Shown: positions 798 through 42,700 of the stretch, piece after piece
Layout of the letters: every line of letters starts with the position of its first letter
How positions within the stretch are numbered: the stretch's first letter is position 1
Assembly (NCBI GenBank): GCA_038153405.1
Contig: JAYOYH010000018.1
Coordinates: 45,980 to 90,868, forward strand
Direction: 5' to 3'
Source of the DNA: Gemmatimonadota bacterium
GTDB taxonomy: Bacteria; Latescibacterota; UBA2968; UBA8231
Length of the DNA stretch: 44,889 nt
Notes under the pieces: model-generated
Seen by the model: the letters and a program-made list of their open reading frames with translations, nothing else
Database searches by the model: none
What the model was told of the DNA's origin: nothing
Position numbers and translations under genes: made by a program

Positions 798-1046
798 TAG
801 GCTCCGCTCTCTGCACGGGTGCGGAGAAGCTGTACCTATTTATGTCTATTAGCGAGGATCTAAATTTTGATTTTGCAATTGAATAGAGAAGAGAGAGAAA
901 GGAGGGTTGCGGCGCAGAGGATTAATTCTGTATCTGTGTGTGTGAGTGAAAAATTAGAGGCCCATCTCCTGCGGTGTGCAGGGTTGGGCAAGAAATATTC
1001 ATCGTTTTGTCATTCTTAATGCAGGGAATGTATCCCTGAGGAGGAA

Positions 1047-4000
1047 ATGATGAAGGGTAGCAAATGCTTACTACTTCTCGCCGCTTTTTTGGTGGGATTG
1101 GGCCTGTCGGCGCCTTCAGGTGCCCAGAACACTATTCATAGTGTTGAGGTCGCTTCCCCAGACAACGGCGCTTTTAAGGGTATCGGTCAAACCTTTCAGG
1201 TGAAGGCCAAGATGCTCCAAGTATCGCCCGCAGACAGTCTTGAAGTTATTATGTATCTCGTTGCGGGTAACGACTCAACGGTTGTTGCTGATACGCTCAA
1301 TCAGAGCGTAAACTGGGGCTCGCTGAATCAGTCCACAGTGATTCGTATTGCCAACAACACCCTGAACGATGGGACTGCCACTGGTGGCGCCAGAAGGCTC
1401 ATTGATGGTCAGACCAAAAAGCCAGTCACGAGTTTGGTCGCCGTTCAGCAGAAGTACGGTCGCGCTCGTGCCAGCAACGGCTTAGGTCGTGCAAACAAAT
1501 TGGGCGATGGCGACTCGGTTTCGGTATCGATCGTGAAGGGTCCTTCGGTTGATACCACTATGTTCACGTGGTGGGGTCGGATTGATGCCTCATCTGGTAC
1601 TGTCGCGGGTGTTCACGCCGCCGCTTTCTCAATTTCGGGCACCGATACATCAGCCGTCCAGTTGTCTACACACGCCAACACGGGGGCTCGCAAGGATGTC
1701 AAGTTTACGCTTGATGCAGACCGCCCGGCTGCTCCGGATTCGCTGTTGAAGCGTGCTGTTGTACCGTACAACGCCAACCCTTATACCATGTCCACTGACG
1801 TTCTCACGGGTTGCGTTACCGGGGACAGGATATACAAAAGTGTTACGGTGCAGGGTGACGCCCGTGATGTACTGGGTATTGGCGATTCAATTGTTGTCAG
1901 GACCAAACTGGGCGATGCCAAAGCGAACGGTGTGCTGGTATCTGACACGTTGAACGTTATTTTGGACGTCTTCGGTAAAGAGTTTACTTTCGACAAGGCG
2001 AATCGCCAAGTTGACACGTTGAAAGTAAAGGTCGCGCTGACAGAGGGGCTGTTTGGTGACTTATCAGCTCATGATTATGGCACTAGCAACACAGACACCA
2101 TCGGCGTGTTCTTTGTCGATAAGGCTGGGAACCGTTCGGGCGATCGCGCCACGGCTAGGTTGTCCGCTGATGGTTCAGCTTCGGGCGGCGTCTATCTCGA
2201 CGGTCCTGCGACTGGTATAACGGCTGGCGTAAACTTCCTGATTGATACCAAGGTGCCAGTGTTGGATTCGACGGGTAATGATACACTGCTCCCGACGTCC
2301 AACGATACCATCACGGACGGCTCCATTAACGACACCAAGACGCCGCTTGCATACGTCAACGATATAAATACGTTGGCGTTCAAACTGGAAGAGTCACTGG
2401 ATACGTTGACTGTGGGAATCGGTAATGCTTCGATTCGCGTTGTTAACGCTCCGGCTGGCACGCCCAATCAGCAGAGTGCTATCTTGCCTAGACAAGGCGC
2501 GACTAATCAAATCGACTTCACTCAGTTGGGTGACGCGAGCTCAACCACTAACAGCTTTCAGGTTGCCACTACGGCCGGTGTAACTACCGGTATTGGTGTT
2601 CAGAGCACCGTCTTTTGGCCATCCAGTGACAATGTCAAGAAAATAGCGACGGGGACGTACAGCGTTACTTTTCAAGGAAGAGATCTCGCTGGCAATCAAG
2701 GTCCTGTAGTGACGCGGACCAACGTATATGTTGACGTTGCAGACATTCAGCTGTCGCGTCTGTTCCCGACGAAAGCTGCGTTTGGTTCGGTTACAGCTGC
2801 TCGTGTGGATACGATAGAAGAAGAGACCTCTAAGCTCGTCTTCAGACTTTCTGAAGCGGCCGATAGTGTGCTGATCTCATATTTGGGTCTGGCAGGACCG
2901 GATGCGAATAAGACGCGCACTCGTAAGCTTTCGGGCACGCAGTTGACCAATACGGCGACTGAGCAACTTATCCCTGTGGATAGCTTGAAGACCGGCACAC
3001 AATACCGGTTGACAGTGCTCGCACGTGACTTGGCTGGTAACTTTACCCAAACTGCTCCGGACACCTTCCTCTATGACACGTCGTTCGTCGTGCCTGTGAT
3101 TAAGGCGTTCAGGGTTACTGCGGTGGCTAATCCCGCGTCAGCTTTTGGTACTCTGAAGGCGAATAGAGTAATTGCCGGTTCAGAAGTTACGCTCTCTATT
3201 ACGGCAAAAGCGAGCACCGACCTTGCAAATGGTCGTGACGCTGTTACCTACAAGAAAGCGGCTATCGTCAAGGTGAACGGTGGTTCGGGTGTCCAGCTTC
3301 TGACAAAGAACGCCGCTGGTGCTGCTGTCAGCACTGGTGTGACGGATATGGGCAACGGCCGTTTCCAACTCAATGACCTCGAATGGGTGACGGGAACGCG
3401 CACACTAACCTTCCGTGATACCTCTGCACTTGACACGTTGACTGTCACGATCGTCGACTCGGTGAGTGCTGGTGGTCCGTATGCAGGCAAGTTGGACTCG
3501 TCGATTCTAGTGACGCCTGAAGCATTCCATCACGTTATGCTCACCGCGCCAGACACGGTTGATGCGGGTGTGGAATTCTGGGTGGCCGTCAAGTTGAGCG
3601 ACAAGTTCCACAACACGCGCGTTTTCGACAACCGCTACGTGACGATCTCGGCTAATAAGCTGGGTGTCGAAGTGCCGACGGGTGATCAGTTGATCTCCAA
3701 AGGCATGGGCGGTTTCTGGGCGAGAGCGAACACGCCGGATAGCGGCCTGATGTTCACGGTTAAGGATGCTATCACGACTCAGGCTAACGGGTCGCTAAGC
3801 GGTCAGACGGAAGCCAATGAGGGCAATAACGCCATCCAAGGCATGTCGAAGGCTATTGTAGTCCGTGCTGCCGCCGTTGCGACGCCAGCTAAGCTGGATG
3901 GTCCCAATACGGTGGTTGCTGAAGACTACATGGGTGCCGACGGTAAGGGTGATCAGGGCGGTTTCGTCATGATGACCTGGGATCTGTCGACCGATCATGG

Positions 4001-5777
4001 CCAGGTGGACTCGTATCGCATCTACCGCGAGATCCAAGTTAAGCAGCGTCTGGCAACGGCCGCTGACTCGACGACCGCCGCCGTAGTGGCTTTGGCTACG
4101 CCGGAAGCGGCTATGGTGCCGTGGGCGAGAATCGATGCGGTGCCTGGCCAGACGATTGGTCGCGCTATCGTAGCGACCTTGGACAACGTAGCAACCAAGT
4201 GGGCTGTTGCTGCCGAGCGTGGCAACGAGTCGGCTGGTGCCAAGGCGGTCAACGCTGACGCCATGGATGCCTACGCGATGATGGCACAGACGATGCAGCA
4301 GAGCAAGCAGTTGGCCGCTCAGGCCGACCAGCCGGTCTTTGCCGCGCTGACGCCGGAAGCGCTCTCATTCGCTCAGCAGGGTATCGCTCCGCGTCTGAAG
4401 AGTGTGGATGAAGGCGTCGTGCTTTCGCTGCTGACGGAAACCGCAGACGCAGTGCGTGCTATCGACAACATCGCGCCGGCCGCCGTGCCCTACTTGCGCG
4501 CTCTGGATACTCCGGGCGATGCGGGTAGCAGCATTACGCTGACGTGGACGAAGTCGGGTGATGATCGCCTGCTGCCGCGCAGCGCCTCTAACGCGGTATC
4601 GTTGGGCTCGGTGTCGGATATGGTTGCCGGCGTCAAGGGCTACAACGTCTATCGCAAGGTCGGTGCTACGGGCGAGTTCACGCTGATCGGTAAGGCTGCC
4701 TCCGGCGAAACGTCGTTTGTTGATCAGACGGCTTTCAACGGTGTGCGCTACACCTACTCGGTGGCCCCGTATGACGAAGACAACGTAACGGAATCGGATG
4801 TGGAGCGGACGGCCATGGCCATTCGCAACGCAGTGGTCGACAAAAACGGCAAGGCGGTCTACGGTCTGTTTGGCGCAGACGCTCAGGTCGGTTTTGACGA
4901 CTTCTTTATCTTCGCTGACAACTTCGGCCTGACGGCAGCCGACGAGGCTTTCGAGCCGGCCTTCGACCTGGCGACTGGCGCCGGTGTTCCGAGGGTTGAC
5001 TTCGATGACTTCTTCGTCTTCGCCGACAACTTTGGCCGCGGTATCAATGCCGCCGGTAAAGTGGTTCCGATGTTGGCGGGTCTCAACGCCGATGCGCGTC
5101 TCTACCTCGAGACCGCCGCTGATCTGCCCCGCGTGGGTGAGGAAGTGGTCATCGACGTTGATCTGGCCGACTACGTTGAGTTGAAGGGTTATGGTCTGTC
5201 GGTTGTTTACGACGCCGAAAAGCTGGAGTATGTCCGCACGGTTACCGCGAACGCGCTGCTGGGTGAGGGCGAGTTGGCCACGCCGCGGGCTATTACGCAG
5301 ACAGAAGGTCAGATCGACATCGCTGCCTATGGCGAGACGGTCTCGGAAGGTGCTCTCGGTATGAGCGTAGTCTTCCGCACCAAGACGGAGATTGAGAACT
5401 CCTTCATCGAGGTGACCGATAGCCAGGTGCGCGATGGCAACTTTGCCGTCAACGCCGTGGCTCTGCCGGCTCCGGTGCAGATCCAGACGCGTCCGGAAGC
5501 GTTCGCCTTGGCGAACAACTATCCGAACCCGTTCAACCCGGCCACCACCATCAAGTATGCCTTGCCGGAAGCATCTCAGGTGCGCCTGGAGGTCTTCAAC
5601 GTAGTGGGTCAGGTTGTTCGGACCCTGGTTGATAACCACCAGAACGCGGGCCGCTATGTGGTCCAGTGGGATGCGACCAACGATCAGGGGCACAGCTTGT
5701 CCTCGGGTATTTACTTCTATCGCCTGCAGGCGGGAGGTGAGTTCCTCGAAGTCAAGAAGATGCTCTTGCTCAAATAA
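1047..5777 (+). CDS. Large secreted surface (S-layer-like) protein: signal peptide, Ig-like repeats, two FN3, dockerin-like paired EF-hand, cohesin-like domain, T9SS/FlgD-type C-terminal domain
   Basis: RBS GAGGAGG; signal peptide ending APSGA; DxAGN motifs (DKAGN, DLAGN x2); FDDFFxFADNFG x2; YPNPFNP...SGIYFYRL...KKMLLLK. Confidence 0.8.
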   Translation: MMKGSKCLLLLAAFLVGLGLSAPSGAQNTIHSVEVASPDNGAFKGIGQTFQVKAKMLQVSPADSLEVIMYLVAGNDSTVVADTLNQSVNWGSLNQSTVIRIANNTLNDGTATGGARRLIDGQTKKPVTSLVAVQQKYGRARASNGLGRANKLGDGDSVSVSIVKGPSVDTTMFTWWGRIDASSGTVAGVHAAAFSISGTDTSAVQLSTHANTGARKDVKFTLDADRPAAPDSLLKRAVVPYNANPYTMSTDVLTGCVTGDRIYKSVTVQGDARDVLGIGDSIVVRTKLGDAKANGVLVSDTLNVILDVFGKEFTFDKANRQVDTLKVKVALTEGLFGDLSAHDYGTSNTDTIGVFFVDKAGNRSGDRATARLSADGSASGGVYLDGPATGITAGVNFLIDTKVPVLDSTGNDTLLPTSNDTITDGSINDTKTPLAYVNDINTLAFKLEESLDTLTVGIGNASIRVVNAPAGTPNQQSAILPRQGATNQIDFTQLGDASSTTNSFQVATTAGVTTGIGVQSTVFWPSSDNVKKIATGTYSVTFQGRDLAGNQGPVVTRTNVYVDVADIQLSRLFPTKAAFGSVTAARVDTIEEETSKLVFRLSEAADSVLISYLGLAGPDANKTRTRKLSGTQLTNTATEQLIPVDSLKTGTQYRLTVLARDLAGNFTQTAPDTFLYDTSFVVPVIKAFRVTAVANPASAFGTLKANRVIAGSEVTLSITAKASTDLANGRDAVTYKKAAIVKVNGGSGVQLLTKNAAGAAVSTGVTDMGNGRFQLNDLEWVTGTRTLTFRDTSALDTLTVTIVDSVSAGGPYAGKLDSSILVTPEAFHHVMLTAPDTVDAGVEFWVAVKLSDKFHNTRVFDNRYVTISANKLGVEVPTGDQLISKGMGGFWARANTPDSGLMFTVKDAITTQANGSLSGQTEANEGNNAIQGMSKAIVVRAAAVATPAKLDGPNTVVAEDYMGADGKGDQGGFVMMTWDLSTDHGQVDSYRIYREIQVKQRLATAADSTTAAVVALATPEAAMVPWARIDAVPGQTIGRAIVATLDNVATKWAVAAERGNESAGAKAVNADAMDAYAMMAQTMQQSKQLAAQADQPVFAALTPEALSFAQQGIAPRLKSVDEGVVLSLLTETADAVRAIDNIAPAAVPYLRALDTPGDAGSSITLTWTKSGDDRLLPRSASNAVSLGSVSDMVAGVKGYNVYRKVGATGEFTLIGKAASGETSFVDQTAFNGVRYTYSVAPYDEDNVTESDVERTAMAIRNAVVDKNGKAVYGLFGADAQVGFDDFFIFADNFGLTAADEAFEPAFDLATGAGVPRVDFDDFFVFADNFGRGINAAGKVVPMLAGLNADARLYLETAADLPRVGEEVVIDVDLADYVELKGYGLSVVYDAEKLEYVRTVTANALLGEGELATPRAITQTEGQIDIAAYGETVSEGALGMSVVFRTKTEIENSFIEVTDSQVRDGNFAVNAVALPAPVQIQTRPEAFALANNYPNPFNPATTIKYALPEASQVRLEVFNVVGQVVRTLVDNHQNAGRYVVQWDATNDQGHSLSSGIYFYRLQAGGEFLEVKKMLLLK

Positions 5778-5799
5778 GCAAGACTGCAGCTAAGGGAAG

Positions 5800-5831
5800 T
5801 GGGATGGGATCTCTTAGGGGATCCCATCCCA
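5800..5831 (+). other. Intergenic 12-bp perfect stem-loop without an adjacent U-tract (stabiliser or partial terminator)
   Basis: TGGGATGGGATC (5800-5811) pairs with GATCCCATCCCA (5820-5831). Confidence 0.65.
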
Positions 5832-5889: not shown

Positions 5890-7443
5890 ATGCAGAACAG
5901 CGTGCGCAAGATTCTGACTCTTGCCATCGCCTCCCTGCTCGCGCTTAGTGGCGCTGCCATTGCCGGCAATAACGCAGGCGTCGTTGTCTCTTTGGATAGC
6001 GATGCCGTGGTGTCTGGAGCCGGTGCTGGTACCGCGATTGAAGTTGCTCTTTCGGCTTCGGGAATGGTCGGTGTAAAGCAGTTTGATGTCACCATCACCG
6101 TCTCACCTGCCGGTGCATTTGATTTGTCTGCTACCACGTTTGCACAGAATTCGGCCTTCACGATTTCACCGGGCGTTGAGTTTCCTGCAGACGGACAGGT
6201 CAAGAGCGGAGCGGCGAGCTTTGGCGCTGCTGTAGAGGGCGATGGAGGATTGGGGACCTTTACCCTCAAGACGTCGGACAGCTTTAGTGCAGATACGGAA
6301 GCCACCATCACGGTTACGCGCGTGTCTCTTGGTCCGTCTTCTACGGATCGCGACGTTTTTGAGAGCGATGCGTTGGGCTTGAGCGTTACGGTAAATCCAC
6401 CGGCTCCTCCAGTCATTGAGCCGGCTCTGACGGCCACATCCGATACGGATGTCAGCTTAGATTATTCGGAAGTGGGCTCGGGTGATGTCGATGACGACAG
6501 CGATGGCGAAATTGTTTTTGCCGTCAACTTCGTCGATGGCACGGGTGCTGCTGGTGCTGACCAGACAATCACTTGGGACATTACGAATAACGGTTCTGAG
6601 TCCGTCTTCCTCATCGCCGGTGATGGTGCCATTGAAATCAGTGCGGGTGAGAGCATTACGGTCGAAAGCGCTACGGATGCCGACGGTGATGCAGAGGCTC
6701 TGTTTGATGCAGAGGGCGATCGTGAAGCTGGTACGACGAGCTTGAGCATCATGGTTAGCACCTCGTCGACGAATTCGGACGGCGTCGCTCGCGACCTCTC
6801 TGCCGATTTCAGCGCGACGTGGGATGTGCCGGTTGCAGCCGAATTGGCCAGCTTCACTTCGCAAGTTACGGTTGATGACGATATCCTCCTGCAGTGGGGC
6901 GTTGCTTCGCAGTCCAATAATTTGGGCTGGGAAGTGTTTCGCAGCACGGATAGCCGCATCTTTACCAAGGTTAGCGAATTGGTGCTGGGCGACGGCAACA
7001 GCGACGAGTATAAGTCCTATAGTTTTGTGGACAGCAACTTGCCGCAGACCGACGTGCTCTACTACTATCTGAACCAGATTGATCTGGACGGAACGACCTC
7101 TCGCTCGCAGGTTATCGAGGTATTGCTCTCGCCGACGGCTGTCGCTGAGTTAGCACTGCCGATGGTGAATGCGCTGCGTCAGAACTTTCCCAATCCGTTC
7201 AATCCCGAGACCATGATCAGCTTTGATCTGAGCGGTGATCAGGTCGTCAGCCTGGCGATTTACGATATGACCGGACAGGTCATTCGCACGCTGGTTGACG
7301 CACAGCCGATGACTGCTGGAAATTTCAAGCAGCTGTGGGATGGTCGCAACGATAGCGGAGCTAAGGTTGGTAGCGGAGTGTATTTCTACCAGCTGCGTGC
7401 TGGCGATTTCATCGCTAAGAAGAAGATGACGTTGCTCCAGTAG
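5890..7443 (+). CDS. Secreted acidic protein: N-terminal cohesin-like domain, Pro linker, Ig-like domain, PVEL-type domain, T9SS/FlgD-type CTD
   Basis: Start moved to ATG 5890 (RBS AGGAGA; signal peptide MQNSVRKILTLAIASLLALSGAAIA); VPVAAELASF...LQWGVASQSNNLGWEVFRS; FPNPFNP...SGVYFYQL...KKMTLLQ. Confidence 0.8.
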   Translation: MQNSVRKILTLAIASLLALSGAAIAGNNAGVVVSLDSDAVVSGAGAGTAIEVALSASGMVGVKQFDVTITVSPAGAFDLSATTFAQNSAFTISPGVEFPADGQVKSGAASFGAAVEGDGGLGTFTLKTSDSFSADTEATITVTRVSLGPSSTDRDVFESDALGLSVTVNPPAPPVIEPALTATSDTDVSLDYSEVGSGDVDDDSDGEIVFAVNFVDGTGAAGADQTITWDITNNGSESVFLIAGDGAIEISAGESITVESATDADGDAEALFDAEGDREAGTTSLSIMVSTSSTNSDGVARDLSADFSATWDVPVAAELASFTSQVTVDDDILLQWGVASQSNNLGWEVFRSTDSRIFTKVSELVLGDGNSDEYKSYSFVDSNLPQTDVLYYYLNQIDLDGTTSRSQVIEVLLSPTAVAELALPMVNALRQNFPNPFNPETMISFDLSGDQVVSLAIYDMTGQVIRTLVDAQPMTAGNFKQLWDGRNDSGAKVGSGVYFYQLRAGDFIAKKKMTLLQ

Positions 7444-21717: not shown

Positions 21718-22260
21718 ATGAAGTGCGAGATTTGCCACAGCAACGATGCGACGACGGCGTATACGCATATAGTTGACGACGCGAAGAAAACGCTTCTGCT
21801 CTGTGCCAACTGCGTTCCTAAAAGCGAGCGGAGCGAGCGGGCGGAGCCGTCCGAGGCACAGGCTCAGCAACACGTGCCGGTGCTCGTCAAAAAGGTGAAA
21901 GTGGAGTTTGGTACGGCACCGTCTCCGGAGACCTCCGCGGCGGGGCCCTGTGATGGATGTGGGATGACCTACGAGCAGTTTAAAAAGGTGGGGCGACTCG
22001 GGTGCCATCGCTGTTATGCGGTATTTGGAGCACAGCTAGAGCGCCTGTTAAAGCGCATACACGGCGCCGATGCGCACTGTGGCAAGGGGCGCATTGACGA
22101 ACGTGCGGCACCGCGTCCTGCAGAGGCGTTGGATGAGTTGCGCAGCGAACTGAGCAAGGCGGTCGAACGCGAAGATTTTGAGCGCGCAGCGCAAATCCGC
22201 GATCGCATCCGCACGATCGAGGCAGAGGGGCAACGCCCCGTTGGTGAGGCCGAGCGTTGA
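21718..22260 (+). CDS. mcsA: Protein-arginine kinase activator McsA
   Basis: Four CXXC motifs (CEIC, CANC, CDGC, CHRC), GRLGC, RIHG, C-terminal UVR domain EDFERAAQIRDRI. Confidence 0.93.
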   Translation: MKCEICHSNDATTAYTHIVDDAKKTLLLCANCVPKSERSERAEPSEAQAQQHVPVLVKKVKVEFGTAPSPETSAAGPCDGCGMTYEQFKKVGRLGCHRCYAVFGAQLERLLKRIHGADAHCGKGRIDERAAPRPAEALDELRSELSKAVEREDFERAAQIRDRIRTIEAEGQRPVGEAER

Positions 22261-23333
22261 ATATCGGCGAACTCGTTGGCAATCGCGCCCAGTGGCTCAG
22301 CGGCGAAGCGGACGGCGATGGAATTGTTGTCAGCTGTCGCGCACGTTTAGCGCGGAATATATCGACCGCACCGTTCGCGCCCAAGGCGACCGTAGACGAT
22401 CAGGAGCGGATTATCGAGCGCGTCTTGAATGCCGCCCAGCATAGCCGTCACATGTGCAGTGCTTCGTTTTTCAAAATGAATGCGCTGCAGGAGAGCGAGC
22501 GGCTTCTGCTGGTCGAGCGCCATTTGGTCAGTCCGGCACTGGCCGAGAGCAAGGGGCAGCGCGGGGTGCTCTTTAACCGAGACGAGGCGCTGAGCATTAT
22601 GATTAACGAAGAGGACCACTTGCGCCTGCAGGCGATTCTGCCTGGTCTACAGGCGCAGGGCGCGTGGAACGCCGTGGATGCGCTCGACGACGATCTGGGT
22701 TCTTCGCTGCCGTATGCCCACACCGATCGATGGGGTTTTCTGACGGCGTGTCCGACCAATGTGGGAACGGGTTTACGCGTCTCCGTGCTGATTCACCTGC
22801 CGGCGCTGGTGCTGACAGAAGATATGGAACGCGTAACGCGCGGCTTGATGAAGATGGCGTTTACCGTGCGCGGTTTTTACGGCGAGGGAACGAATCCGGT
22901 AGGCAATTTATTTCAAATATCAAACCAGTCGACGCTCGGGGTTGAAGAGGGCAAAATCGTCGAAATGCTCACGACGATTACACAGCAAATCATAGCGTGT
23001 GAAAAAGACGCGCAGGACGCGCTCTTAAAAGAGGCGCGCTCGCAGGTCGAAGACAAGATTTGGCGCGCGTACGGGCTGCTCTCGCACGCGCGCGTCTTGA
23101 GCAGTCAGGAATTTATGAACCTGCTTTCCGCCGTGCGCTTGGGGCGCAGTTTGGGTTTGGTAAAGACGGTGGATTCCAGCTTTATGAACCACCTGATGAT
23201 CATAACCCAGCCGTCGCATTTGCAGATGGAGCGCGGGGGCGAACTGGCTCCGGAAGAGCGCGATATTTACCGCGCCGAACGGGTGCGCTCGCGCTTTGCG
23301 ACCCGGCCGGCAGACGGGGCTGGGTTACCTTGA
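22257..23333 (+). CDS. mcsB: Protein-arginine kinase McsB
   Basis: RARLARN, LVERHLVS, NEEDHLR, CPTNVGTG, RGFYGEG, QISNQ; TTG start overlaps the mcsA stop. Confidence 0.95.
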   Translation: MNIGELVGNRAQWLSGEADGDGIVVSCRARLARNISTAPFAPKATVDDQERIIERVLNAAQHSRHMCSASFFKMNALQESERLLLVERHLVSPALAESKGQRGVLFNRDEALSIMINEEDHLRLQAILPGLQAQGAWNAVDALDDDLGSSLPYAHTDRWGFLTACPTNVGTGLRVSVLIHLPALVLTEDMERVTRGLMKMAFTVRGFYGEGTNPVGNLFQISNQSTLGVEEGKIVEMLTTITQQIIACEKDAQDALLKEARSQVEDKIWRAYGLLSHARVLSSQEFMNLLSAVRLGRSLGLVKTVDSSFMNHLMIITQPSHLQMERGGELAPEERDIYRAERVRSRFATRPADGAGLP

Positions 23334-23358
23334 CAACGCTACGCCCTTTTGGTAGTTT
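23330..23358 (+). promoter_or_regulatory. Internal sigma70-type promoter for clpC
   Basis: TTGACA (23330-23335), 17 bp, TAGTTT (23353-23358) with extended -10 TG. Confidence 0.6.
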
Positions 23359-23398
23359 CAGAAAAGGCCCACCGGGGGCTAAATCATTCCTAACACAT

Positions 23399-23413
23399 TG
23401 ATAATTATTATAA
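23399..23413. promoter_or_regulatory. Fur/PerR-like 7-1-7 operator
   Basis: TGATAATTATTATAA: one mismatch to the Fur box TGATAATnATTATCA and one to the Per box TTATAATnATTATAA. Confidence 0.55.
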
Positions 23414-23463
23414 ATAAAGCATACGCGGTAGTCGGTTAAAGATGAGCCGCGGAGGTCTATTTC

Positions 23464-25929
23464 ATGAATAATATGTTTACCGATGGCGTCAAACGCGTCA
23501 TGCAGTTGGCCCGAGAAGAATCCGCGCGCTTGGGGCATAACTACATTGGCACTGAACACCTGTTATTGGGCATCATAAAGGACGGCAAAGGCAAGGCCGT
23601 TACGGTGCTGACCAACCTGGGGTTAAGCCTAGAGACGGTCAAGCAATCGGTCGAGGATTACGTGGCCACTTCGGGGGGTACGATGACCATTGGCGAGGTG
23701 CCGTTCACGCCGCGCGCCAAACAGATCTTAGAGGTCGCGGCCAACGAAGCCAAAGAAATGAAGACGCAGTTCGTCGACGTCGAGCACCTGCTGCTCGCCT
23801 TGTTGAAGGACAAGGAAGGCGTCGCAGCGCAAATTCTCGCCGCATTTGGCGTCGACTATAAGACCGCGATGGAAGAGACGTTAGCCGTGTTGGAGGGCAA
23901 AACGACGGGCCGCAAGGAAAAGGGCAAGAAGAGCAAGACGCCGTTTCTCGATCACTTTGGTCGCGACCTGACGCAGCTGGCGCGCGAGGGCAAGCTCGAT
24001 CCGGTCATCGGTCGGCAGAAGGAAATCGAGCGCGTTACGCAGATCCTCAGCCGCCGCAAGAAAAACAACCCCATCCTCATCGGCGACCCCGGCGTCGGCA
24101 AGACGGCCATCGTCGAAGGGCTCGCTCAGCGCATTATAGAGAAGCGCGTTCCGCAAATCTTGCTCGACAAGCGCTTGGTGACGCTCGATATGGGAGGCGT
24201 TGTCGCCGGCACCAAATACCGCGGTCAGTTTGAAGAGCGCATCAAGGCGGTGATGAACGAGCTACAGCAAAATACCGAGGTCATCATCTTTATCGACGAG
24301 CTGCACACGATTGTCGGTGCGGGCAGTGCCGAGGGCACGCTCGATGCATCCAATATGTTTAAGCCGGCGCTGGCACGCGGCGAATTGCAGTGCATTGGCG
24401 CCACTACGCTCGATGAATACCGCAAGCACATCGAGAAGGACGGTGCGCTGGAGCGCCGCTTTCAAAACATTATGGTCGACCCGCCGTCAGTCGAGGATAC
24501 CATTGAAATTCTCAAGGGGTTGCGCACCAGCTACGAGGCCCATCACCACGTCGAATTTCCCGACCATGTGATTTCCTACGTCGTGCGTCAGTCGGATCGC
24601 TATATCAGCGACCGCTACTTACCCGACAAGGCCATCGATGTCCTCGATGAGACGGGTTCGCGCGTGCATTTGGCGCGCCTTAGTCCTCCCGAACAAATCA
24701 GCAAATTGGAGGGCGAAATCCAGGAGATAAATCGCCAAAAGAACGAAGCAGCGGAGCGGCAGGATTTTGAAGAGGCCGTCATTCTGCGCGACAAGGCACT
24801 GCAGCTGGGCGAAGAGCTGCAGCGCAGCCGTCAGGAGTGGGAAGAGAAGGTCCGCGACGAGGTCGTGCAGGTCAGCGAAGACAATATCGCCGAAGTCATA
24901 GCTAGCATGACGGGTATTCCCATAACGCGACTGGCCAAGAGCGAGAGCGATCGGCTGCTGGCCATGGAGAGCGAGCTCAAAAAGAAGATCATTGGTCAAG
25001 AGCAGGCGGTCACGGCCATATCGCGTGCCATTCGCCGCAGCAGGGCCGGCCTGCAGGATCCGCGCCGTCCCATCGGTTCGTTTATCTTTCTCGGGCCGAC
25101 CGGCGTTGGTAAGACGGAACTGGCCAAGCGTCTGGCAGAGTTTCTCTTTGACGATGAAGAGGCGCTGATCTCCGTCGACATGTCCGAATACATGGAGAAG
25201 TTCGCCGTTTCGCGCCTGATTGGCGCGCCTCCGGGCTACGTCGGCTTTGACGAGGGAGGCCAGCTAACGGAAAAGGTGCGCCGCCGTCCCTATTCGGTCA
25301 TATTGCTCGACGAGATCGAAAAGGCCCATCCAGACGTATTCAATATTCTGCTGCAAATCCTCGACGAAGGGCGGCTGACTGACAGCACTGGACGCAAGGT
25401 TGACTTTAGCAACACCGTCATGATCATGACCTCTAATATCGGCAGCCGCGACGTCGGTACGGGCGGTGTGCTCGGCTTCCAAAAATCCGATGCCGATACG
25501 CTGCACGAGCTGATGGAGGGCAAGATAAACGATGCGCTGAAAAAGACCTTCAATCCGGAATTTATCAACCGCGTCGACGATGCGATTATCTTTCATGCGC
25601 TGACCAAAGAGCATATTAACGAGATCATCGACATCACGCTCAACGAGTTTAAAAAGCGCCTAGAAAACCAGGACATCGGTCTGCGCATCACGCCGGGAGC
25701 CAAGAACCTAATGGCCGATAAGGGTTTTGATATGGCGTTCGGCGCGCGCTATCTCAAGCGCACGGTGCAGAAGATGTTGGAAGATCCGCTGGCAGAAGAA
25801 ATTCTCAACGGTCACTTTGCTGCCGGTAGTCGAATCCGCGTTACCAAGAAGGGCGAAGAGCTCGTTTTTGACGAAGAGCGCGGCGATTCCGAAGAAAAAG
25901 TAGAAGAAAAGAAGGAAACTGCCGGTTAA
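23464..25929 (+). CDS. clpC: ATP-dependent Clp protease ATPase ClpC
   Basis: Double Clp-N repeat; GDPGVGKT and GPTGVGKT Walker A motifs; UVR middle domain; LGF ClpP-docking loop; follows mcsAB. Confidence 0.97.
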
Positions 25930-31692: not shown

Positions 31693-34600
31693 CTATTTGA
31701 TTAGGGTCATTTTGCGCGTATGGGTGAAGCTGGGCGTAACGAGTCGGTAAAAGTAGATACCGCTGGCGACGCCGATTCCATGCGCATCTAAGCCATCCCA
31801 GGCGATTCGGTAGAATCCCGCCGCCTGTAGCGGATGAGAGACCAGTTTGCGCACTTGTTGCCCCAGAATATCATATACTACGAGCTGGACGGGTGCGTCC
31901 TCGGGCAGCGCGTATTCAATGCTCGTCGATGGGTTGAATGGGTTGGGATAGTTGGTGTGCAGGGCATAAGTTTCGGGGCGCAGCGCGGTGGAATGCAACT
32001 GCACGGCCGAACGCACGCCCAGAGTCGGCGATGCGGTGTAGGCCTCGCGCAAGTCGAGCCCTACGGCGTTTGCGTCGCCTAAGCGCGTGAAGCGCAGTTG
32101 GGCCAATAGGCCCTGTCCCGATACGGTAGATCCATCTGTCAGGCCGTTGCCGACGACGACTTGTCCGGGCTTTTCCCAGAATACGGAAAAGAGGGGCGCA
32201 TTACCGCCCTTGCTGCCCAGCAAATGACCGGGGCCGGGAAGAGCTTCCTCAAAGCGCAGAAGGGTTGGATCGTATTCGATTACCGCGCCAAATGCGCTGA
32301 GGTCTTCCACCTGCTTGCCCCAAAGGCGCACCGTCAGCTGGTTGCTTTCTGAGCGGGTGCCACCGCGCGCCTCGAGAGAAAAAACCGATTTTTCATCGTT
32401 GGCCTGCGGAACTGCCCAGCGCTTGCCGCTCAGGGTCTTGCCGAAGTTGTCGACGAAGATAAAGAAATCGTTGAAGTCTACGCTGCCGCCGCCGTCCAGA
32501 TCGTAGGCTGCCGCCGCGCCCGTCGCGCTCTGGCCAAAAAAGTCGACGAAGAGAAAAAAGTCGTCGAATGTGACGCCGCCGTCGCCGTTAAAGTCGCCAG
32601 CCAGTGCCGATGGGTCGGCGACGACAAACGCTTCCGCTTGGGCAAACTCGCTGGCCAAATCGCCTTCGACCGCGCGCACTCTCCAATAATAGGTCGTGCC
32701 CTCTTCCAGATCGCGATCGATGGTCCATCCCGTTTGGCCGGTCCCTATATCGCCGGATCCATCTACCAAGTCCGATACGGAAGCTGCAGCGGTGGAAAAG
32801 TCCGGTGCCGCGGAGATCTGTATCTCGTAGGTCAGCGTGCCGCCGGCGTTAAATGGGCTCGCGTTGGTAAAGAAGAACGTGGGCCTCAGATAGTCGCCGC
32901 TGCGCCCCAATTCGCTTGGAGCAGATGGTGCCGACGAAGAATTGGGCGTGGCCGATACGGTGTTGGAAGGAGCGCTTTCGTTTGGCGGGTTCTCCGTGTC
33001 GACAGAAGTCACGTAGTACTGATAGGTGGTGTCATTGCCGACATTGGGGTCGGTATAGGTTGTCTTTTGCACGCCGGAGTTGAGCAGGGCAAATGCGCTG
33101 CCCGCCGCGCTGCGATAGACGTTGAAGCCGTTGAGATCGAGGGCGACCTCAGCTTGCCAGGACAGTACGACCTGTCGCGTGCCCTCTGTAGCGCTGAGGC
33201 TTGTAGGTATAGCTGGTGCCGTAGTATCGGCCGTGCTCAGCGTAGTAAACTCGAGGGTATCGCTCTCGGTAGAGGGGTTGCCCGCGCGGTCGGTTGAGCC
33301 AACGATGTAATAGTAGGTCTGGCCCGGCGTCAGGTTGGTCAGCGTGATGGTGTGGTCCGTGACGTCTTCTGTAGCGCCAATATTGAAATTAAAAGCTAGA
33401 CGGTCGGTGCCAAATTCGACGAAGCTATCGGACAATTCGTCGGTAGTCCAGCCGATAATGGCCAGCGAGTCGGAGACGGAAGACTGGATGGAGGATATAA
33501 CGGGCGAACTCAGGTCCGGTGTCGCATCGGTAGTGAACGATAGCGTATCGCTTTTGGTCGGGCCGTTATTGCTCAAGTCAGACGAAGCGACCACATAGTA
33601 ATACGTCTGGTTAGCGCTGAGGTTTGTAAGTGTTACCTCGTGCGTAGTGGCCGATGTGGACAGCGTGCGCACCGTGCCGAGGTTGTTCGTCGTGCCGAAT
33701 TCGACTTCGGCCGTGGACTCCTCGTCGGTGGTCCAGCGCAGGGTTGCACTAGTGTCATTTTTATAGGCGATAGAGGGTGCCGCCGTGATTTCCGGTGCGG
33801 TAATGTCCACCTCTGGATTTGTCGTAAAGGTCGCCGTAGCGCTCTGTGTCGCGCCGTTGCCCGCCGCGTCCGTAGACCCAACCACGTAGCTATAGGTAGA
33901 GCCCGGCTCTAAGTCGCTGAGAACGATTTTGTGCGACGTCTGGTTGTCTCCAGATGTCTCGCTATTGTCGAGACTCGCAGAGCCAAATTGCACGTCGCTA
34001 TCGGCGGGTTCGTCTGTCGTCCATTCGATAACGGCCGAGTCGTGTGTTTGCGAGGTGACAGAGGGGCCGGATAGGATAACGGGAAACTGCGTATCGGCCG
34101 TGGCATCCGTGGTAAAACTACCCGACCCACCGGGCGGCTGTAGCACTTTGGCGCGCTTGAGTGCCGATGAGTTGTTGGGGTCGAATGCGACTTTCTTGCC
34201 GTTGGGACCGGTTGCTTCGATTCGGTAGCCGTAGGTCGTGCTGAGATCCAAGCCGCTGACTGTGATGATGTGCTCGCGCGTAAAGCGCGCGCTGCCGTTG
34301 GGGTTGAGGTTGGCGAACTCAAACTCATCGGATGAGCCCAGCGTGGCGTTTGTTCCTACGGAACCGGTGAAGACGCTGCCCGAGGTTGGAATATCCGTCG
34401 ACCAGCGCACGATAGCCACTTTGCCGCGCACGACGACCTGCGGTCCGGAAACGATGACCGGCGCAAGCGTGTCGCTCGATGCAGAAGTGCGGAAGTGGAA
34501 GTCGCGGTTCCATTGCCGGTTGCCGCGCGGGTCGGTGTTGAGCGTATCTACCTCGTTAAAAGCGGTGATGCGGAAGCGGTAACGCGTTGCCGAAGACAGT

Positions 34601-36108
34601 TCGCTAAGGGCAATATCGTGCACCGTCAACAGCTCTCCAGACGAGGAGGTGTCCGTGTAGGCGATGGGGATTTCGCGCAGCGGCGTATCGTCATCTAACG
34701 CGGCGTATTCGAGGCGAATCGACGCTGGCTGGTTGAGCTGTATGCGCAGGCGCGCGCCGTCGGATCCGACCACGTGGAAAGGTGGTCTTGTGAAGCGCAG
34801 GCGCCGGTCTATGGAGCGCGTGTGCAGGAAATCCGGACGCGTTGTCTGCACCTCCTGTTCGGTCATGCCCTCGGCCAAAAAGCTTTCTGCGTTAGTCAGG
34901 CGAGAGCCCACGCTGAAGTTGTAGCGCGTATTGGGCTGCAGGTCGCGAATCTCGACGATATGCACCTGGGTGCCGTCTTCGTCATTGATTATTTCAGCCG
35001 CTGTTCCTTCGCCGCCAGTATTAAAGGTGTAGCGCGTATCGGCCGGTCGGTTGGTAAACCAGCGAATCACTGCAGAAAACGGCGTCGACTGCACTTCGAA
35101 ACGCTCTAAGAAGAGCGGGCGTTTGTCGACGCCCAAGCGCGTTCTGAAAAAACCTTTAAACGGCGGGCTAGGGCGACCGTTGAGGTCATACGAGCGCGCC
35201 GTGAACTCGTACTCCGTTTTGGGCTTGAGATTGCTTGCAATTACCGTGTGGCGGCGGTTGCCTAACGCATCGTCGAGTTTGCGAACGGCATTAATGAAGT
35301 CAGTTGTGATGACAAAGTCCTCAAACCGAGGTAAGGACTGCAGAGCCATCCGTATGCGCTCGTCATCGAGCGTTTCCCGCGGTATGATGCCGCGCTCGAG
35401 TAGGGCCTTGAGTCCGTCGAGCATACGCGGCGTCACGCGCTCGGCCAGTGGGTTGGTAAAGGTGCGCCAAAGCGTGTCGCCGACGGCGCGAACTCGCACG
35501 GTATCCGTAAGGCCCGGGTCTTTGGTGCGCCAGTTTAGGGTGACGACGTCGCGTCCGCTAATGTGTTCTAAATCGAAGATGGCATTGGAGAAAAACTTTA
35601 CCAACTTGATGCCAAATTGGTTGATGCCAAAACGCCGCTCGTCAAAGTCGCTCGAACTGGCACCGACGCGCACCTTGGTTATGGAGAGCATGGCACCCTG
35701 TTCGGAAATGGGGCCTACGATATCGAAATTGATGGTATAGAGTACGCCCGTCCCCGTAGAGGCAGCAGCGGAATTATTTCCGGACACGGCAAATCCCTCG
35801 ATGACGAACCCGTCGTCTCGCGTGACGGGTGCCTTGGGCAAAGCCAGTTGTGGCGGGATAAATGGGCCGGGTGCGATTTGTACGTTGCCTATAATGCGCG
35901 GATCGTAGGCGATCTCAATTTCACTCTGGCGTCCGGCCTCGACAAACTCAACGCCGATGGCCGCTTTTATGCGCTGTCCGACGGAAGGATCGCGAATGTC
36001 GCGCGGATTGAATTGCACCCTGAAGGCTTCATTTGTGCCTGCCCACAGCGGCGAAGCGCTCAGCGCTAGCAGGGTGCAGACGAGCAAACAGCGGCCGTTG
36101 ATGCCCAT
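31693..36108 (-). CDS. Secreted scaffoldin-like protein: signal peptide, N-terminal cohesin-like domain, ~9 FN3 repeats, dockerin-like paired EF-hand, cohesin-like domain, T9SS/FlgD-type CTD
   Basis: Repeated WxTDE...H...L..L...TY.Y; GDFNGDGGVTFDDFF and DLDGGGSVDFNDFF; YDPTLLRF...GQGLLAQLRF; YPNPFNP...SGIYFYRL...RKMTLIK. Confidence 0.82.
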   Translation of the reverse strand: MGINGRCLLVCTLLALSASPLWAGTNEAFRVQFNPRDIRDPSVGQRIKAAIGVEFVEAGRQSEIEIAYDPRIIGNVQIAPGPFIPPQLALPKAPVTRDDGFVIEGFAVSGNNSAAASTGTGVLYTINFDIVGPISEQGAMLSITKVRVGASSSDFDERRFGINQFGIKLVKFFSNAIFDLEHISGRDVVTLNWRTKDPGLTDTVRVRAVGDTLWRTFTNPLAERVTPRMLDGLKALLERGIIPRETLDDERIRMALQSLPRFEDFVITTDFINAVRKLDDALGNRRHTVIASNLKPKTEYEFTARSYDLNGRPSPPFKGFFRTRLGVDKRPLFLERFEVQSTPFSAVIRWFTNRPADTRYTFNTGGEGTAAEIINDEDGTQVHIVEIRDLQPNTRYNFSVGSRLTNAESFLAEGMTEQEVQTTRPDFLHTRSIDRRLRFTRPPFHVVGSDGARLRIQLNQPASIRLEYAALDDDTPLREIPIAYTDTSSSGELLTVHDIALSELSSATRYRFRITAFNEVDTLNTDPRGNRQWNRDFHFRTSASSDTLAPVIVSGPQVVVRGKVAIVRWSTDIPTSGSVFTGSVGTNATLGSSDEFEFANLNPNGSARFTREHIITVSGLDLSTTYGYRIEATGPNGKKVAFDPNNSSALKRAKVLQPPGGSGSFTTDATADTQFPVILSGPSVTSQTHDSAVIEWTTDEPADSDVQFGSASLDNSETSGDNQTSHKIVLSDLEPGSTYSYVVGSTDAAGNGATQSATATFTTNPEVDITAPEITAAPSIAYKNDTSATLRWTTDEESTAEVEFGTTNNLGTVRTLSTSATTHEVTLTNLSANQTYYYVVASSDLSNNGPTKSDTLSFTTDATPDLSSPVISSIQSSVSDSLAIIGWTTDELSDSFVEFGTDRLAFNFNIGATEDVTDHTITLTNLTPGQTYYYIVGSTDRAGNPSTESDTLEFTTLSTADTTAPAIPTSLSATEGTRQVVLSWQAEVALDLNGFNVYRSAAGSAFALLNSGVQKTTYTDPNVGNDTTYQYYVTSVDTENPPNESAPSNTVSATPNSSSAPSAPSELGRSGDYLRPTFFFTNASPFNAGGTLTYEIQISAAPDFSTAAASVSDLVDGSGDIGTGQTGWTIDRDLEEGTTYYWRVRAVEGDLASEFAQAEAFVVADPSALAGDFNGDGGVTFDDFFLFVDFFGQSATGAAAAYDLDGGGSVDFNDFFIFVDNFGKTLSGKRWAVPQANDEKSVFSLEARGGTRSESNQLTVRLWGKQVEDLSAFGAVIEYDPTLLRFEEALPGPGHLLGSKGGNAPLFSVFWEKPGQVVVGNGLTDGSTVSGQGLLAQLRFTRLGDANAVGLDLREAYTASPTLGVRSAVQLHSTALRPETYALHTNYPNPFNPSTSIEYALPEDAPVQLVVYDILGQQVRKLVSHPLQAAGFYRIAWDGLDAHGIGVASGIYFYRLVTPSFTHTRKMTLIK

Positions 36109-38577: not shown

Positions 38578-39665
38578 TGTGAGTTCAACTTCTAAGTGCA
38601 CTTTTCGTGGCATGTGAAAAACAAAGGCCAACTGGTATATTTCCTTTGTCAAATCACATGCCCCACGAAGAGGAGCTTATGAAGGGATATAGCCAGTTGA
38701 CCTTACCCCAAAGATACGAAATATCAGCGCTGGACAAAGCCGGTCATGGCCCCAGCGCGATAGCGACCGTGGTGGGCGTCCACCGGACGACGATCTCGCG
38801 GGAGTTGAAACGAAATAAGAGCCCCAATGGCTACTTTCCCCAAGCGGCTGATCGTCGCGCTCAACAGCGTCGGCAGGATCGGTGTCGACCGCTTAAATGG
38901 ACGGGCCGTTGCCGTCAGTTGGTTGAGGGAAAACTGCGACACCAGTGGAGTCCGGAGCAGATCGCCAACTGGTTGGGACGCAGCGAAGGGATTTCTATTT
39001 CCCACGAGCGCATTTATCAGCATATTCGCTCCGATCAAGCACAGGGTGGCACACTGTATAGGCATCTACGTCAGCGTCTCCGCCCTAAACGAGTTACAGC
39101 CCAGACGGCCTATAAAGGCTCGATCCCAGATCGCGTTTCGATTGATGAGCGTCCACTCATCGTCGAAGAGAAGCAGCGTATCGGCGATTGGGAAGTCGAT
39201 CTGATGATGGGTGGCCAAGGCGGCGGTGCACTCTTAACGTTGGTCGAGCGAAAAAGTCGATTTACCCGGATCGAACCGGTCGATTCTAAACACGCCGATC
39301 ACGTCGCCCAGGTGCTCATTAATGCGCTGCGAGATCACAGGCAACAGGTCCATACCTTGACCATGGATAACGGCAACGAGTTTGCTCAGCATCAAAAAGT
39401 CAAGAAATCACTACGAGCCGATGTCTACTTTGCCCATCCTTATTGCGCCTGGCAGAGAGGGCTCAACGAGAATACCAACGGCCTCTTACGGCAATACTTT
39501 CCTAAAGGAATTAACTTTAAAACGGTGAGTCGTGCTAAAATCCAGCAAGTCGAGCAGCGGCTCAATAATCGACCTAGAAAAGGCCTGGAATTTCAAACGC
39601 CAAACGAGATTTTCCATGCTAAAAAAACATAATCACAATATGTGCACTTCAGAGTTGAAACCACC
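38578..39665 (+). mobile_element. IS30-family insertion sequence
   Basis: Imperfect 24-bp terminal inverted repeats 38578-38601 and 39642-39665 (18/24 matches) flank a transposase. The left end could extend to 38572; no clear target duplication. Confidence 0.85.
38679..39632 (+). CDS. IS30-family DDE transposase
   Basis: ATG 38679 after AGGAG; HTH TISRELKRN, WSPEQI, GDWEVD, DNGNEF, WQRGLNENTNGLLRQYFPK, LNNRPRK; frame intact. Confidence 0.95.
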   Translation: MKGYSQLTLPQRYEISALDKAGHGPSAIATVVGVHRTTISRELKRNKSPNGYFPQAADRRAQQRRQDRCRPLKWTGRCRQLVEGKLRHQWSPEQIANWLGRSEGISISHERIYQHIRSDQAQGGTLYRHLRQRLRPKRVTAQTAYKGSIPDRVSIDERPLIVEEKQRIGDWEVDLMMGGQGGGALLTLVERKSRFTRIEPVDSKHADHVAQVLINALRDHRQQVHTLTMDNGNEFAQHQKVKKSLRADVYFAHPYCAWQRGLNENTNGLLRQYFPKGINFKTVSRAKIQQVEQRLNNRPRKGLEFQTPNEIFHAKKT

Positions 39666-39777
39666 CTCTATATACTTCAATACGAATTAGATTTGTGTTG
39701 AAAGTCTAATTTTAACGGACCGCCTCAATCGCTCACCTGGACAGGCGGGACAGTGGCCAAAAAAAGAAAGACAAATT

Positions 39778-40503
39778 GTGGACGACCTAAAAGATCATCA
39801 AGTAGCCATTTTATGCGGTGGTAGGGGGACGCGTCTTAGGCCGACTACAGACACTATCCCGAAAGCGCTCGTAGAGTTAAACGGGCGCCCTATTCTCGAC
39901 TATATAGTTGATTTTTACTCTTCCAAAGGCTTAAATAAATTTATTATGTGTACTGGTTATAAGGGAGAATTGGTCGAGTCGCATTGTCGCAGTTATTCAG
40001 CCAATCTAAATTTTTATTTTTCAGATGCTGGAGAGAATGCCAGCATGCTACAGCGGATTTGGCATATGCGTGAAATGATCGAAGAGCGGATGTTTGTCTC
40101 TTATTGTGACACGTTTATAGATTTGGATATTGGCCAGATGTTAGAGGAACACCGCAGAAAAGGGGCTGTTGCGACTATGGTAACAGCGAGGATAAAAAGC
40201 CCGTTTGGCCTATTGACCTATGGTGCAAATAGATGGGTGGATTCTTTTGTTGAAAAGCCAGTGCTCAACTACTACATCGGCAGCTTTATACTCGAGCGTT
40301 CCGCATTGGAGAATGTGACCCCGGAAATGCTCGCTAAGCCAGATGGTGAAGGGATCGTAGAATTCTTCAACGTTCTTGTCGATAGAAATCAATTGGCTGC
40401 ACACGAACATGCGGGTGCCCAAATCACCTTTAATACAGAAAACGAGCGCCAGAAGGCAGAAGAAACTCTGGGGCATTTTTATTCGGTTTCGGAGGATTTA
40501 TGA
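39778..40503 (+). CDS. Sugar-1-phosphate nucleotidyltransferase
   Basis: AILCGGRGTRL...PKALVELNGRPIL, GYKGE, FVEKP. Confidence 0.88.
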   Translation: MDDLKDHQVAILCGGRGTRLRPTTDTIPKALVELNGRPILDYIVDFYSSKGLNKFIMCTGYKGELVESHCRSYSANLNFYFSDAGENASMLQRIWHMREMIEERMFVSYCDTFIDLDIGQMLEEHRRKGAVATMVTARIKSPFGLLTYGANRWVDSFVEKPVLNYYIGSFILERSALENVTPEMLAKPDGEGIVEFFNVLVDRNQLAAHEHAGAQITFNTENERQKAEETLGHFYSVSEDL

Positions 40504-41498: not shown

Positions 41499-41503
41499 CA
41501 CAG

Positions 41504-42616: not shown

Positions 42617-42700
42617 TAGCTACTATTTCTATAACAGTAGCGCCTTGTCTGCGCTGATTATTACTACGTGTTGTCAGCTATGTGTTTGGGTGAAAGCACA

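Follow-up and report, generated by a model that had tools for sequence, protein, structure and literature searches.

The question raised by this locus is whether a large surface protein encoded outside the Bacteroidota is a substrate of the general O-glycosylation that the Bacteroidota direct to Asp-Ser/Thr motifs. The gene lies in a 44,889-nucleotide stretch from a Gemmatimonadota bacterium placed in the Latescibacterota by its GTDB lineage (GenBank assembly GCA_038153405.1, contig JAYOYH010000018.1, positions 45,980 to 90,868, forward strand); this whole stretch is referred to below as the window, and positions are counted from its first letter. The gene (window 1047-5777, + strand) encodes a protein of 1576 amino acids (aa), and a gene for a 517-aa partner lies downstream of it. 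An original prediction, made from the letters alone, had described the 1576-aa protein as a heavily glycosylated surface protein that carries this system beyond the Bacteroidota, and had proposed a shuffle test and a genome-wide comparison of secreted and cytoplasmic proteins as checks. Our analysis suggests that the 1576-aa protein is probably a heavily O-glycosylated surface protein exported by the T9SS (type IX secretion system), and that a Bacteroidota-type system extends to another phylum of the Fibrobacterota-Chlorobiota-Bacteroidota (FCB) group. By every sequence test that we ran, the protein resembles Bacteroidota O-glycosylation substrates; membership itself needs a glycan.

With a strict sequon defined as D-[S/T]-[AILVMT], a scan of the translated open reading frame (ORF) finds 21 sequons in the 1576-aa protein, at residues 63, 76, 82, 156, 169, 231, 280, 300, 323, 350, 407, 412, 420, 452, 588, 606, 645, 796, 804, 836 and 1007, with none beyond. 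This is the distribution that had been counted by hand, with 20 in residues 1-840. Shuffling these 840 residues gives a mean of 5.74 sequons (standard deviation 2.23), close to the rough expectation of about 5 put forward originally, and none of 20,000 shuffles reaches 20; for the whole protein the comparison is 21 with 8.47 (0 of 5,000 shuffles). Control motifs in residues 1-840, where h is a hydrophobic residue, sit at expectation (E[ST]h, 1 vs 1.3; N[ST]h, 4 vs 3.9; G[ST]h, 7 vs 7.1), and the reversed motif h[ST]D occurs 3 times vs 5.8. The enrichment is therefore specific to Asp, the Glu and Asn versions being flat. Side counts offered originally for other proteins of the window were numerically right, but all fall within chance on shuffling and add nothing: 10 vs 7.8 in a 1471-aa protein (p = 0.25), 4 vs 2.1 in BamA (p = 0.17) and 3 vs 2.1 in ClpC (p = 0.34). 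For BamA, the orthologues found in the phylum give too sparse a picture to help.

The sequons are also conserved. Most of 61 related loci are labelled as Ca. Latescibacterota or Gemmatimonadetes metagenome-assembled genomes, and the following counts relate to the 66 of 69 homologues in which the boundary between the N-terminal region and the C-terminal module was found, which are kin and not independent. Across these 66, the N-terminal region holds 1424 sequons vs 495 expected and the C-terminal module 72 vs 161. In the studied protein the N-terminal region (aa 27-950) carries 20 strict sequons, the first at 1233-1241 and the last at 3552-3560, plus 6 extended-motif sites; homologues carry sequons in alignment columns near the remaining site at aa 1007. 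Most sequon positions are fixed among the homologues, and all 66 have strict sequons at DTL412, DTI588 and DSV606. Conservation of Ser/Thr is 0.83 in sequons vs 0.54 elsewhere (p = 3e-5), and that of Asp is 0.87 vs 0.63 (p = 0.035). Homologues that lack the Asp of a site have mostly lost its Ser/Thr as well at seven sites, retaining it in 3/9, 2/13, 2/18, 2/15, 1/5, 1/5 and 0/3 cases; sites 796 and 836 are exceptions to this co-loss, and site 231 is not conserved. Some relatives (loci L011, L012, L018, L019, L021, L022 and others) have kept the C-terminal module and have the N-terminal region swapped for an unrelated, sequon-poor one, which bears 1-12 sequons vs about 10-14 expected. Relative G059 has about 11 copies of the C-terminal module.

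Near-identical strains, represented by RNA-library contigs, differ mainly in the N-terminal region, the C-terminal module being nearly invariant. Among the matches listed, one run (X1) shows at least 25 differences in 1035-3191 and none in 3473-5513. The partial list of variable codons obtained from these matches holds 36, of which 34 are non-synonymous vs 74% expected (p = 0.002), and none lies inside a sequon (chance 0.06). Variation in the N-terminal region (window 1047-3600) suggests that an exposed surface is under diversifying selection.

The motif bias is clear in the studied genome and its family, and uncertain across the class. Of 3920 genes called in the genome, home-made heuristics classed 607 as exported and 2491 as cytoplasmic. 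By this heuristic localisation the strict motif is enriched in non-cytoplasmic proteins and not in cytoplasmic ones, with observed/expected values of 1.14 and 0.95 and a ratio of 1.20 (1.09-1.33). When all 8,000 tripeptides are ranked by exported vs cytoplasmic use, DSL stands 6th, DST 8th and DTL 20th, the higher ranks being DxD/DG repeats. For D[ST][LT], a subset suggested by these ranks, the values are 1.65 in exported proteins (536/325) and 0.95 in cytoplasmic ones, a ratio of 1.74 (bootstrap 1.51-2.00). Computed separately for each half of the contigs, the ratio is 1.62 and 1.67, and it is 1.31 once the top 20 proteins are dropped. Statistically, Asp is required, since E[ST][LT] and N[ST][LT] stand at 0.89 and 1.07 in exported proteins. 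Counts are over-dispersed among exported proteins for Asp (1.60, a value reached in 0 of 5,000 Poisson simulations), compared with 0.87-1.11 when the first residue is a different one and 0.90 for cytoplasmic proteins; such a pattern would be expected if selection acted in both directions on a recognised site. The same pipeline applied to a Prevotella record gives 44/28 = 1.56 with a dispersion of 1.71, so that the genome-wide comparison proposed originally places the exported proteins at a level like that of a Bacteroidota control. Negative controls give 0.69 (Cupriavidus), 0.72 (Catenovulum) and 1.29 (E. coli, 20/16, interval 0.79-1.99), and pooled Pseudomonadota 64/77 = 0.83 with a dispersion of 0.94.

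Core genes follow the same trend. TamB from 28 loci of the family has 320 sequons vs 133, a total that includes the studied genome's own gene and one wrong-frame locus (L245, 0/1.7), and E. coli TamB has 4 vs 4.0; in the search for a wider control, TamB had no match in the plasmid collection. A DNA search of E. coli genomes also gave no match. For SprA, strict observed/expected is 1.81 in family f1, 1.09 in f2 and 1.09-1.26 across f2-f4, with [LT] values of 1.27-2.30. Flanks of loci L001-L050 proved unusable as a control from relatives, with repeated orthologues and misclassified genes.

The 517-aa partner has no strict sequon vs 4.1 expected, despite 8 D-S/T dipeptides, exactly as noted originally. 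Its homologues, found in 30 ORFs of related loci, together hold 26 sequons vs 97.5 expected, with the Glu version at 71 vs 66 and the Asn version at 54 vs 55.

The 1576-aa protein combines the two features of a T9SS type A cargo, a predicted Sec signal peptide and, at its C-terminus, a sorting domain (CTD) of type A (PF18962, 31.4 bits with a cut-off of 27; TIGR04183, 35.1 with a cut-off of 23). The localisation heuristic assigned it to class SP1 and misplaced the cleavage site. As for the secretion machinery, SprA was found in all 21 genomes searched and in none of 14 controls, and PorV with an adjacent PorU-like C25 peptidase is present in the same genome as the 1576-aa protein; the search covered these components. 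A profile made for this analysis finds 68 CTD proteins in the genome. Other sequon-rich large CTD proteins were seen at C1:3438-29965 (24 vs 6.2), C23:55674-60569 (29 vs 8.8), C46:817-5097 (19 vs 6.6) and C19:28577-31981 (13 vs 3.9). An AlphaFold2 model of aa 27-950, made from an alignment of 67 sequences, has beta-sandwich domains arranged in a chain (mean predicted local distance difference test, pLDDT, 79). Foldseek returned only generic matches to multi-domain immunoglobulin (Ig)-like proteins (template modelling score about 0.13), and no family was assigned to this model; a single-sequence fold of the C-terminal module (pLDDT 34) was not used. Dockerin-like repeats and a cohesin-like domain in that module are leads only.

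By ribosomal-type codon bias the 1576-aa gene ranks first of 2154 genes and its partner about third, and genes that by inspection look flagellin-like and ATP-synthase-like rank near the top as well; the 1576-aa gene is accordingly predicted to be highly expressed. Both genes are covered by near-identical RNA-library contigs from four studies, which can neither rank expression nor prove transcription, and the want of such cover over neighbouring genes is no evidence on expression because the runs were picked by the studied stretch. A Gln follows the predicted signal cleavage site (window 1116-1127). An AxA-Q pattern occurs, by a rough count, in 174 of 481 SP1 proteins of the genome, compared with 20 of 50 for Prevotella and 26 of 123 for the negatives, and it recalls the Q-rule of the Bacteroidetes.

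Coordinates of the features discussed are collected in Table 1.

Table 1. Features of the 1576-aa gene, its partner and a candidate glycosyltransferase operon (window positions unless a locus is named).
Feature	Position	Strand	Evidence
1576-aa secreted T9SS-cargo-type surface protein (predicted)	1047..5777	+	ORF; Pfam/NCBIfam CTD; 69 homologues; codon bias
Predicted Sec signal peptide, aa 1-26, cut likely before Gln27	1047..1124	+	by inspection
N-terminal region, aa 27-950, predicted Ig-like beta-sandwich string	1125..3896	+	model, sequon scan
Conserved C-terminal module, aa ~951-1491, sequon-depleted	3897..5519	+	homologue counts
21st sequon, DST, aa 1007, start of C-terminal module	4065..4073	+	motif scan
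Dockerin-like pair of FDDFF repeats in C-terminal module	4893, 5001	+	Atlas lead dockerin 0.94
Weak cohesin-like domain in C-terminal module	~5130-5345	+	Pfam cohesin E=0.0028, below cut-off
T9SS type A CTD	5520..5774	+	PF18962, TIGR04183
517-aa partner, secreted, CTD-bearing, conserved beside large gene, strict sequon avoided	5890..7443	+	motif scan, Pfam, NCBIfam
Tight operon: TMEM260-like glycosyltransferase (GT-C), GT2, flippase-like, then NamZ	L318:2-3299 (G000:C89)		

Candidate machinery was sought among membrane glycosyltransferases. The TMEM260-like family PF11028 is present in 60 of 61 genomes of the class and in 1 of 14 controls, namely B. thetaiotaomicron. A long type of Latescibacterota TMEM260-like protein aligns with human TMEM260 at D52, H67 and D441, residues whose roles are treated in PMC10214176 and a preprint (10.64898/2026.03.17.711096). 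Its gene is followed by a GT2 gene in 9 of 14 loci (including all 8 of family f1) and by GT2 plus a flippase-like gene in 5 of 14, and all five of its matches in the plasmid collection are to Bacteroidota. In the studied genome the canonical copy is a fragment at the end of a contig (C89), and the one PF11028 domain match (C3) has no D52-type residue. The Prevotella record gave no PF11028 match, which is uninformative because it comprises one replicon only. The TMEM260-like operon as the source of a glycosylation enzyme is a lead only. The same candidate operon is what the analysis offers towards a mannose-deoxyhexose(-HexA) core of the Bacteroidota type. As a side observation, the 26 PMT_2 matches of the genome form an unusually large GT-C set.

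Several results weigh against the reading of the 1576-aa protein as a Bacteroidota-type glycoprotein. Glycan attachment at the sequons, which we consider likely, is a prediction from sequence. The localisation classes come from a heuristic with visible errors, and the [LT] subset was picked after the tripeptide data had been seen. In exported proteins the strict motif is only 1.14-fold enriched and falls to 0.97 without the top 20 proteins, and D[ST][AIVM] stands at 0.82, much like the 0.79 of the negatives; we considered this depletion as a signal of avoidance and rejected it, since the negatives show it too. One positive control, a Chondrinema plasmid, has a weak mean of 1.17 (dispersion 2.46). 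Several distant full-length homologues are unenriched (P0081, 6/6.2; P0084, 9/11.1; P0092, 4/8.5), as are 400-kb samples of two relatives, G009, of the same family (strict 0.56, [LT] 0.80), and of G013, of another family (0.71 and 0.81), although SprA of G009 nonetheless has 12 sequons vs 5.2. With 26 PMT_2 (GT-C) matches in the genome, the TMEM260-like candidate is not unique. No LFG-like wzx/glycosyltransferase locus follows metG (C8:48411-50348), where genes were judged by start sequences and hydrophobicity class only; the LFG locus is not conserved even within the Bacteroidota according to PMC12871550, hence a weak criterion. Finally, 13 of the 20 N-terminal sites are placed at predicted beta-strand starts (positions -2 to +1), and many sites are near-invariant, among them DTL412, DTI588 and DSV606, which would also suit a structural role.

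These last observations, together with the very high positional conservation, favour an explanation in which the motif is structural, with Asp-Ser/Thr forming caps or Ca2+-binding sites at strand starts of an Ig-like fold in an unglycosylated protein. The 1576-aa protein also contains motifs of the kind that Big_3-type repeats carry, D-x-A-G-N and D-T, which presumably bind Ca2+. However, shuffling within AlphaFold-predicted secondary-structure position classes yields 6.25 ± 2.31 sequons, with a maximum of 17 in 20,000, vs the 20 observed, and at strand starts the residue X of X-[ST]-h is Asp in 13 cases, compared with Asn in 2, Gly in 1 and Glu in 1. Proteins with Big_3_3 repeats that match the N-terminal region can lack the motif (P0108, 0 vs 29.2; P0174, 1 vs 12.6; P0183, 0 vs 11.5), and others occur with 33 sequons vs 15.5. 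Genome-wide, the bias is stronger in the helix-like third of proteins (2.42) than in the beta-like third (1.38), as in a helical tetratricopeptide repeat (TPR) protein with 10 sequons vs 2.4, and E. coli TamB shows no excess. A structural cause alone is unlikely, given that helix-rich proteins have the strongest bias and that repeats of the same fold can lack the motif, and we regard this explanation of the 1576-aa protein as quite improbable. The original prediction had held that motifs buried at strand starts would speak against glycosylation; the strand-start positions go part of the way towards this, and the enrichment survives the structure-class shuffle. Its picture of a heavily glycosylated surface protein beyond the Bacteroidota is partly supported: enrichment, Asp specificity, conservation and confinement to exported proteins bear out its statistical side, and the strand-start positions weaken it.

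P0108, P0174 and P0183 are giant Big_3_3-type repeat proteins that nearly avoid D[ST]h. Such near-total avoidance may mark an active system. Among the Big_3_3-type clusters looked up, 2 of 10 are labelled Fidelibacterota.

A second explanation, also improbable in our view, is that the sites are modified by different chemistry or by a lineage-restricted enzyme, for example a GT-C adding single mannoses, in a pathway not homologous to that of the Bacteroidota. It would account for the narrower third-position preference (L and T, with I/V/A not enriched genome-wide), for the lack of an LFG-like locus at metG alongside 26 PMT_2 matches, and for the patchiness across the class seen in SprA (f1 vs f2). 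Its difficulty is that the Asp specificity and the preferences for Ser over Thr and for Leu are those reported for Bacteroidota (PMC12871550), and that in the plasmid collection every match of the long TMEM260-like protein is a Bacteroidota record. A third, that the bias is an inherited or horizontally acquired Bacteroidota relic no longer in use, draws on the lower third-position GC content (GC3) of the N-terminal region (0.58 vs about 0.7) and on relatives that lack a genome-wide bias, and is highly improbable given homologues labelled Latescibacterota rather than Bacteroidota, bias in the core genes TamB and SprA, ribosomal-type codon bias in the 1576-aa gene and the freedom of sequons from the listed strain variation.

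Under the favoured reading of Bacteroidota-type glycosylation, a system that this Latescibacterota family probably shares, the Sec signal peptide and type A CTD would direct export through the SprA, PorV and PorU-like C25 components encoded in the genome. A membrane transferase would add a lipid-linked glycan to Ser/Thr after Asp in the periplasm while the chain is still extended, as in the Bacteroidota model; glycosylation of an extended chain would explain sites at strand starts. The T9SS would then export the glycosylated protein and anchor it on the surface. Selection would keep sequons on the exposed N-terminal domains and act against sequons in the partner, the CTD and the C-terminal module, whose contacts a glycan would presumably block. 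More speculatively, the 1576-aa protein and its partner might form an S-layer-like coat, and the first sugar might be transferred by the TMEM260-like GT-C encoded beside GT2 and a flippase-like gene. We infer both the S-layer role of the pair and the role of the TMEM260-like enzyme.

A broader joint reading can be offered, tentatively and as one that is unlikely to hold in full: D-S/T O-glycosylation would be an ancestral FCB trait that operates in Latescibacterota as well as in repeat proteins labelled Fidelibacterota; the initiating enzyme would be the TMEM260-like GT-C, encoded with GT2 and flippase-like neighbours; and the gene pair would make a new, glycan-coated S-layer with cohesin/dockerin links, in which predators or phages drive the exposed domains to vary and the sugar sites do not change. 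Finding the same signature in another, remote phylum would place the origin of the system in an FCB ancestor and make possible a phylogenetic-profile hunt for the missing transferase. The 1576-aa protein offers about 20 defined, conserved test sites with the partner as a built-in negative control, and it indicates what probably forms the outer coat of an uncultured lineage that is widespread in water.

The window has other features of note. A strong inverted repeat, found by inspection, separates the 1576-aa and 517-aa genes (5796-5830) and is possibly a terminator or mRNA-stabilising hairpin. The 1471-aa protein (31693-36108, - strand), with fibronectin type III (FN3) repeats and a CTD, also carries a dockerin-like repeat pair, and 7 proteins of the genome match a similar pattern. 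At 21718-25929 lies mcsA-mcsB-clpC (UVR protein, ATP:guanido phosphotransferase, ClpC), here in a diderm and directly followed by bamA-skp-fabZ. At 38607-44377, an integrase (rve) gene precedes a lower-GC cluster of sugar-nucleotide, epimerase and GT4 genes with a PMT_2-like membrane gene.

The closest known system is general O-glycosylation in the Bacteroidota, whose core begins with mannose and whose oligosaccharyltransferase and core pathway are unidentified according to PMC12871550. That paper describes it as the sole bacterial O-glycosylation with a sequence motif, treats its origin and protein-targeting transferase as open, and suggests O-mannosyltransferase homologues as a place to look. 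The signature reported here is alike in D-[S/T]-hydrophobic, in that Glu is no substitute for Asp, in favouring Ser over Thr with Leu commonest, and in being confined to non-cytoplasmic proteins, with both enrichment and avoidance among the exported ones; in P. gingivalis, sites are avoided in abundant surface proteins (PMC8729774). It differs in its phylum, in a genome-wide enrichment limited to L/T and in that no metG-wzx-glycosyltransferase locus was seen. Our literature search found no link between Latescibacterota and this glycosylation, though Fig. 2A of PMC12871550, which spans all GTDB genera, or subscription papers could already show one; in the portions consulted, PMC11205867 names no Latescibacterota and PMC4454575 concerns glycoprotein degradation only.

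Enrichment of the motif is mainly a Bacteroidota property, with similar enrichment in Fibrobacterota (PMC12871550). The originally proposed extension beyond the Bacteroidota is borne out as enrichment and is not the first of its kind, the Fibrobacterota case being already in print. Both are sequence-only enrichments in an FCB phylum outside the Bacteroidota (text on Fig. 2A of that paper); Latescibacterota are not named in the main text consulted. Human TMEM260 (GT117, PF11028; PDB 9rql) resembles the long Latescibacterota homologue in the aligned D52, H67 and D441, and it mannosylates extended peptides at beta-strand Thr (preprint 10.64898/2026.03.17.711096; PMC10214176). It differs in reading a long Pro/Gly IPT signature rather than D-S/T, and the candidate gene here is unlinked to the 1576-aa gene.

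The nearest parallel for the gene pair is Tannerella TfsA/TfsB, to which we propose analogy and claim no homology: Pfam, NCBIfam and Foldseek scans gave no S-layer-named match, and no direct comparison with TfsA/TfsB was made. TfsA has 11 sites (PMC8729774), whereas the partner here avoids the motif, and dockerin/cohesin-like modules are a further difference. Among the genuine sites of T. forsythia, DSL and DTL are the most frequent, and 19 of 20 TfsB sites are occupied (PMC8550257). Like that pair, the 1576-aa and 517-aa proteins are two T9SS-CTD proteins, possibly abundant, as codon bias predicts here, of which the larger carries about 20 sequons.

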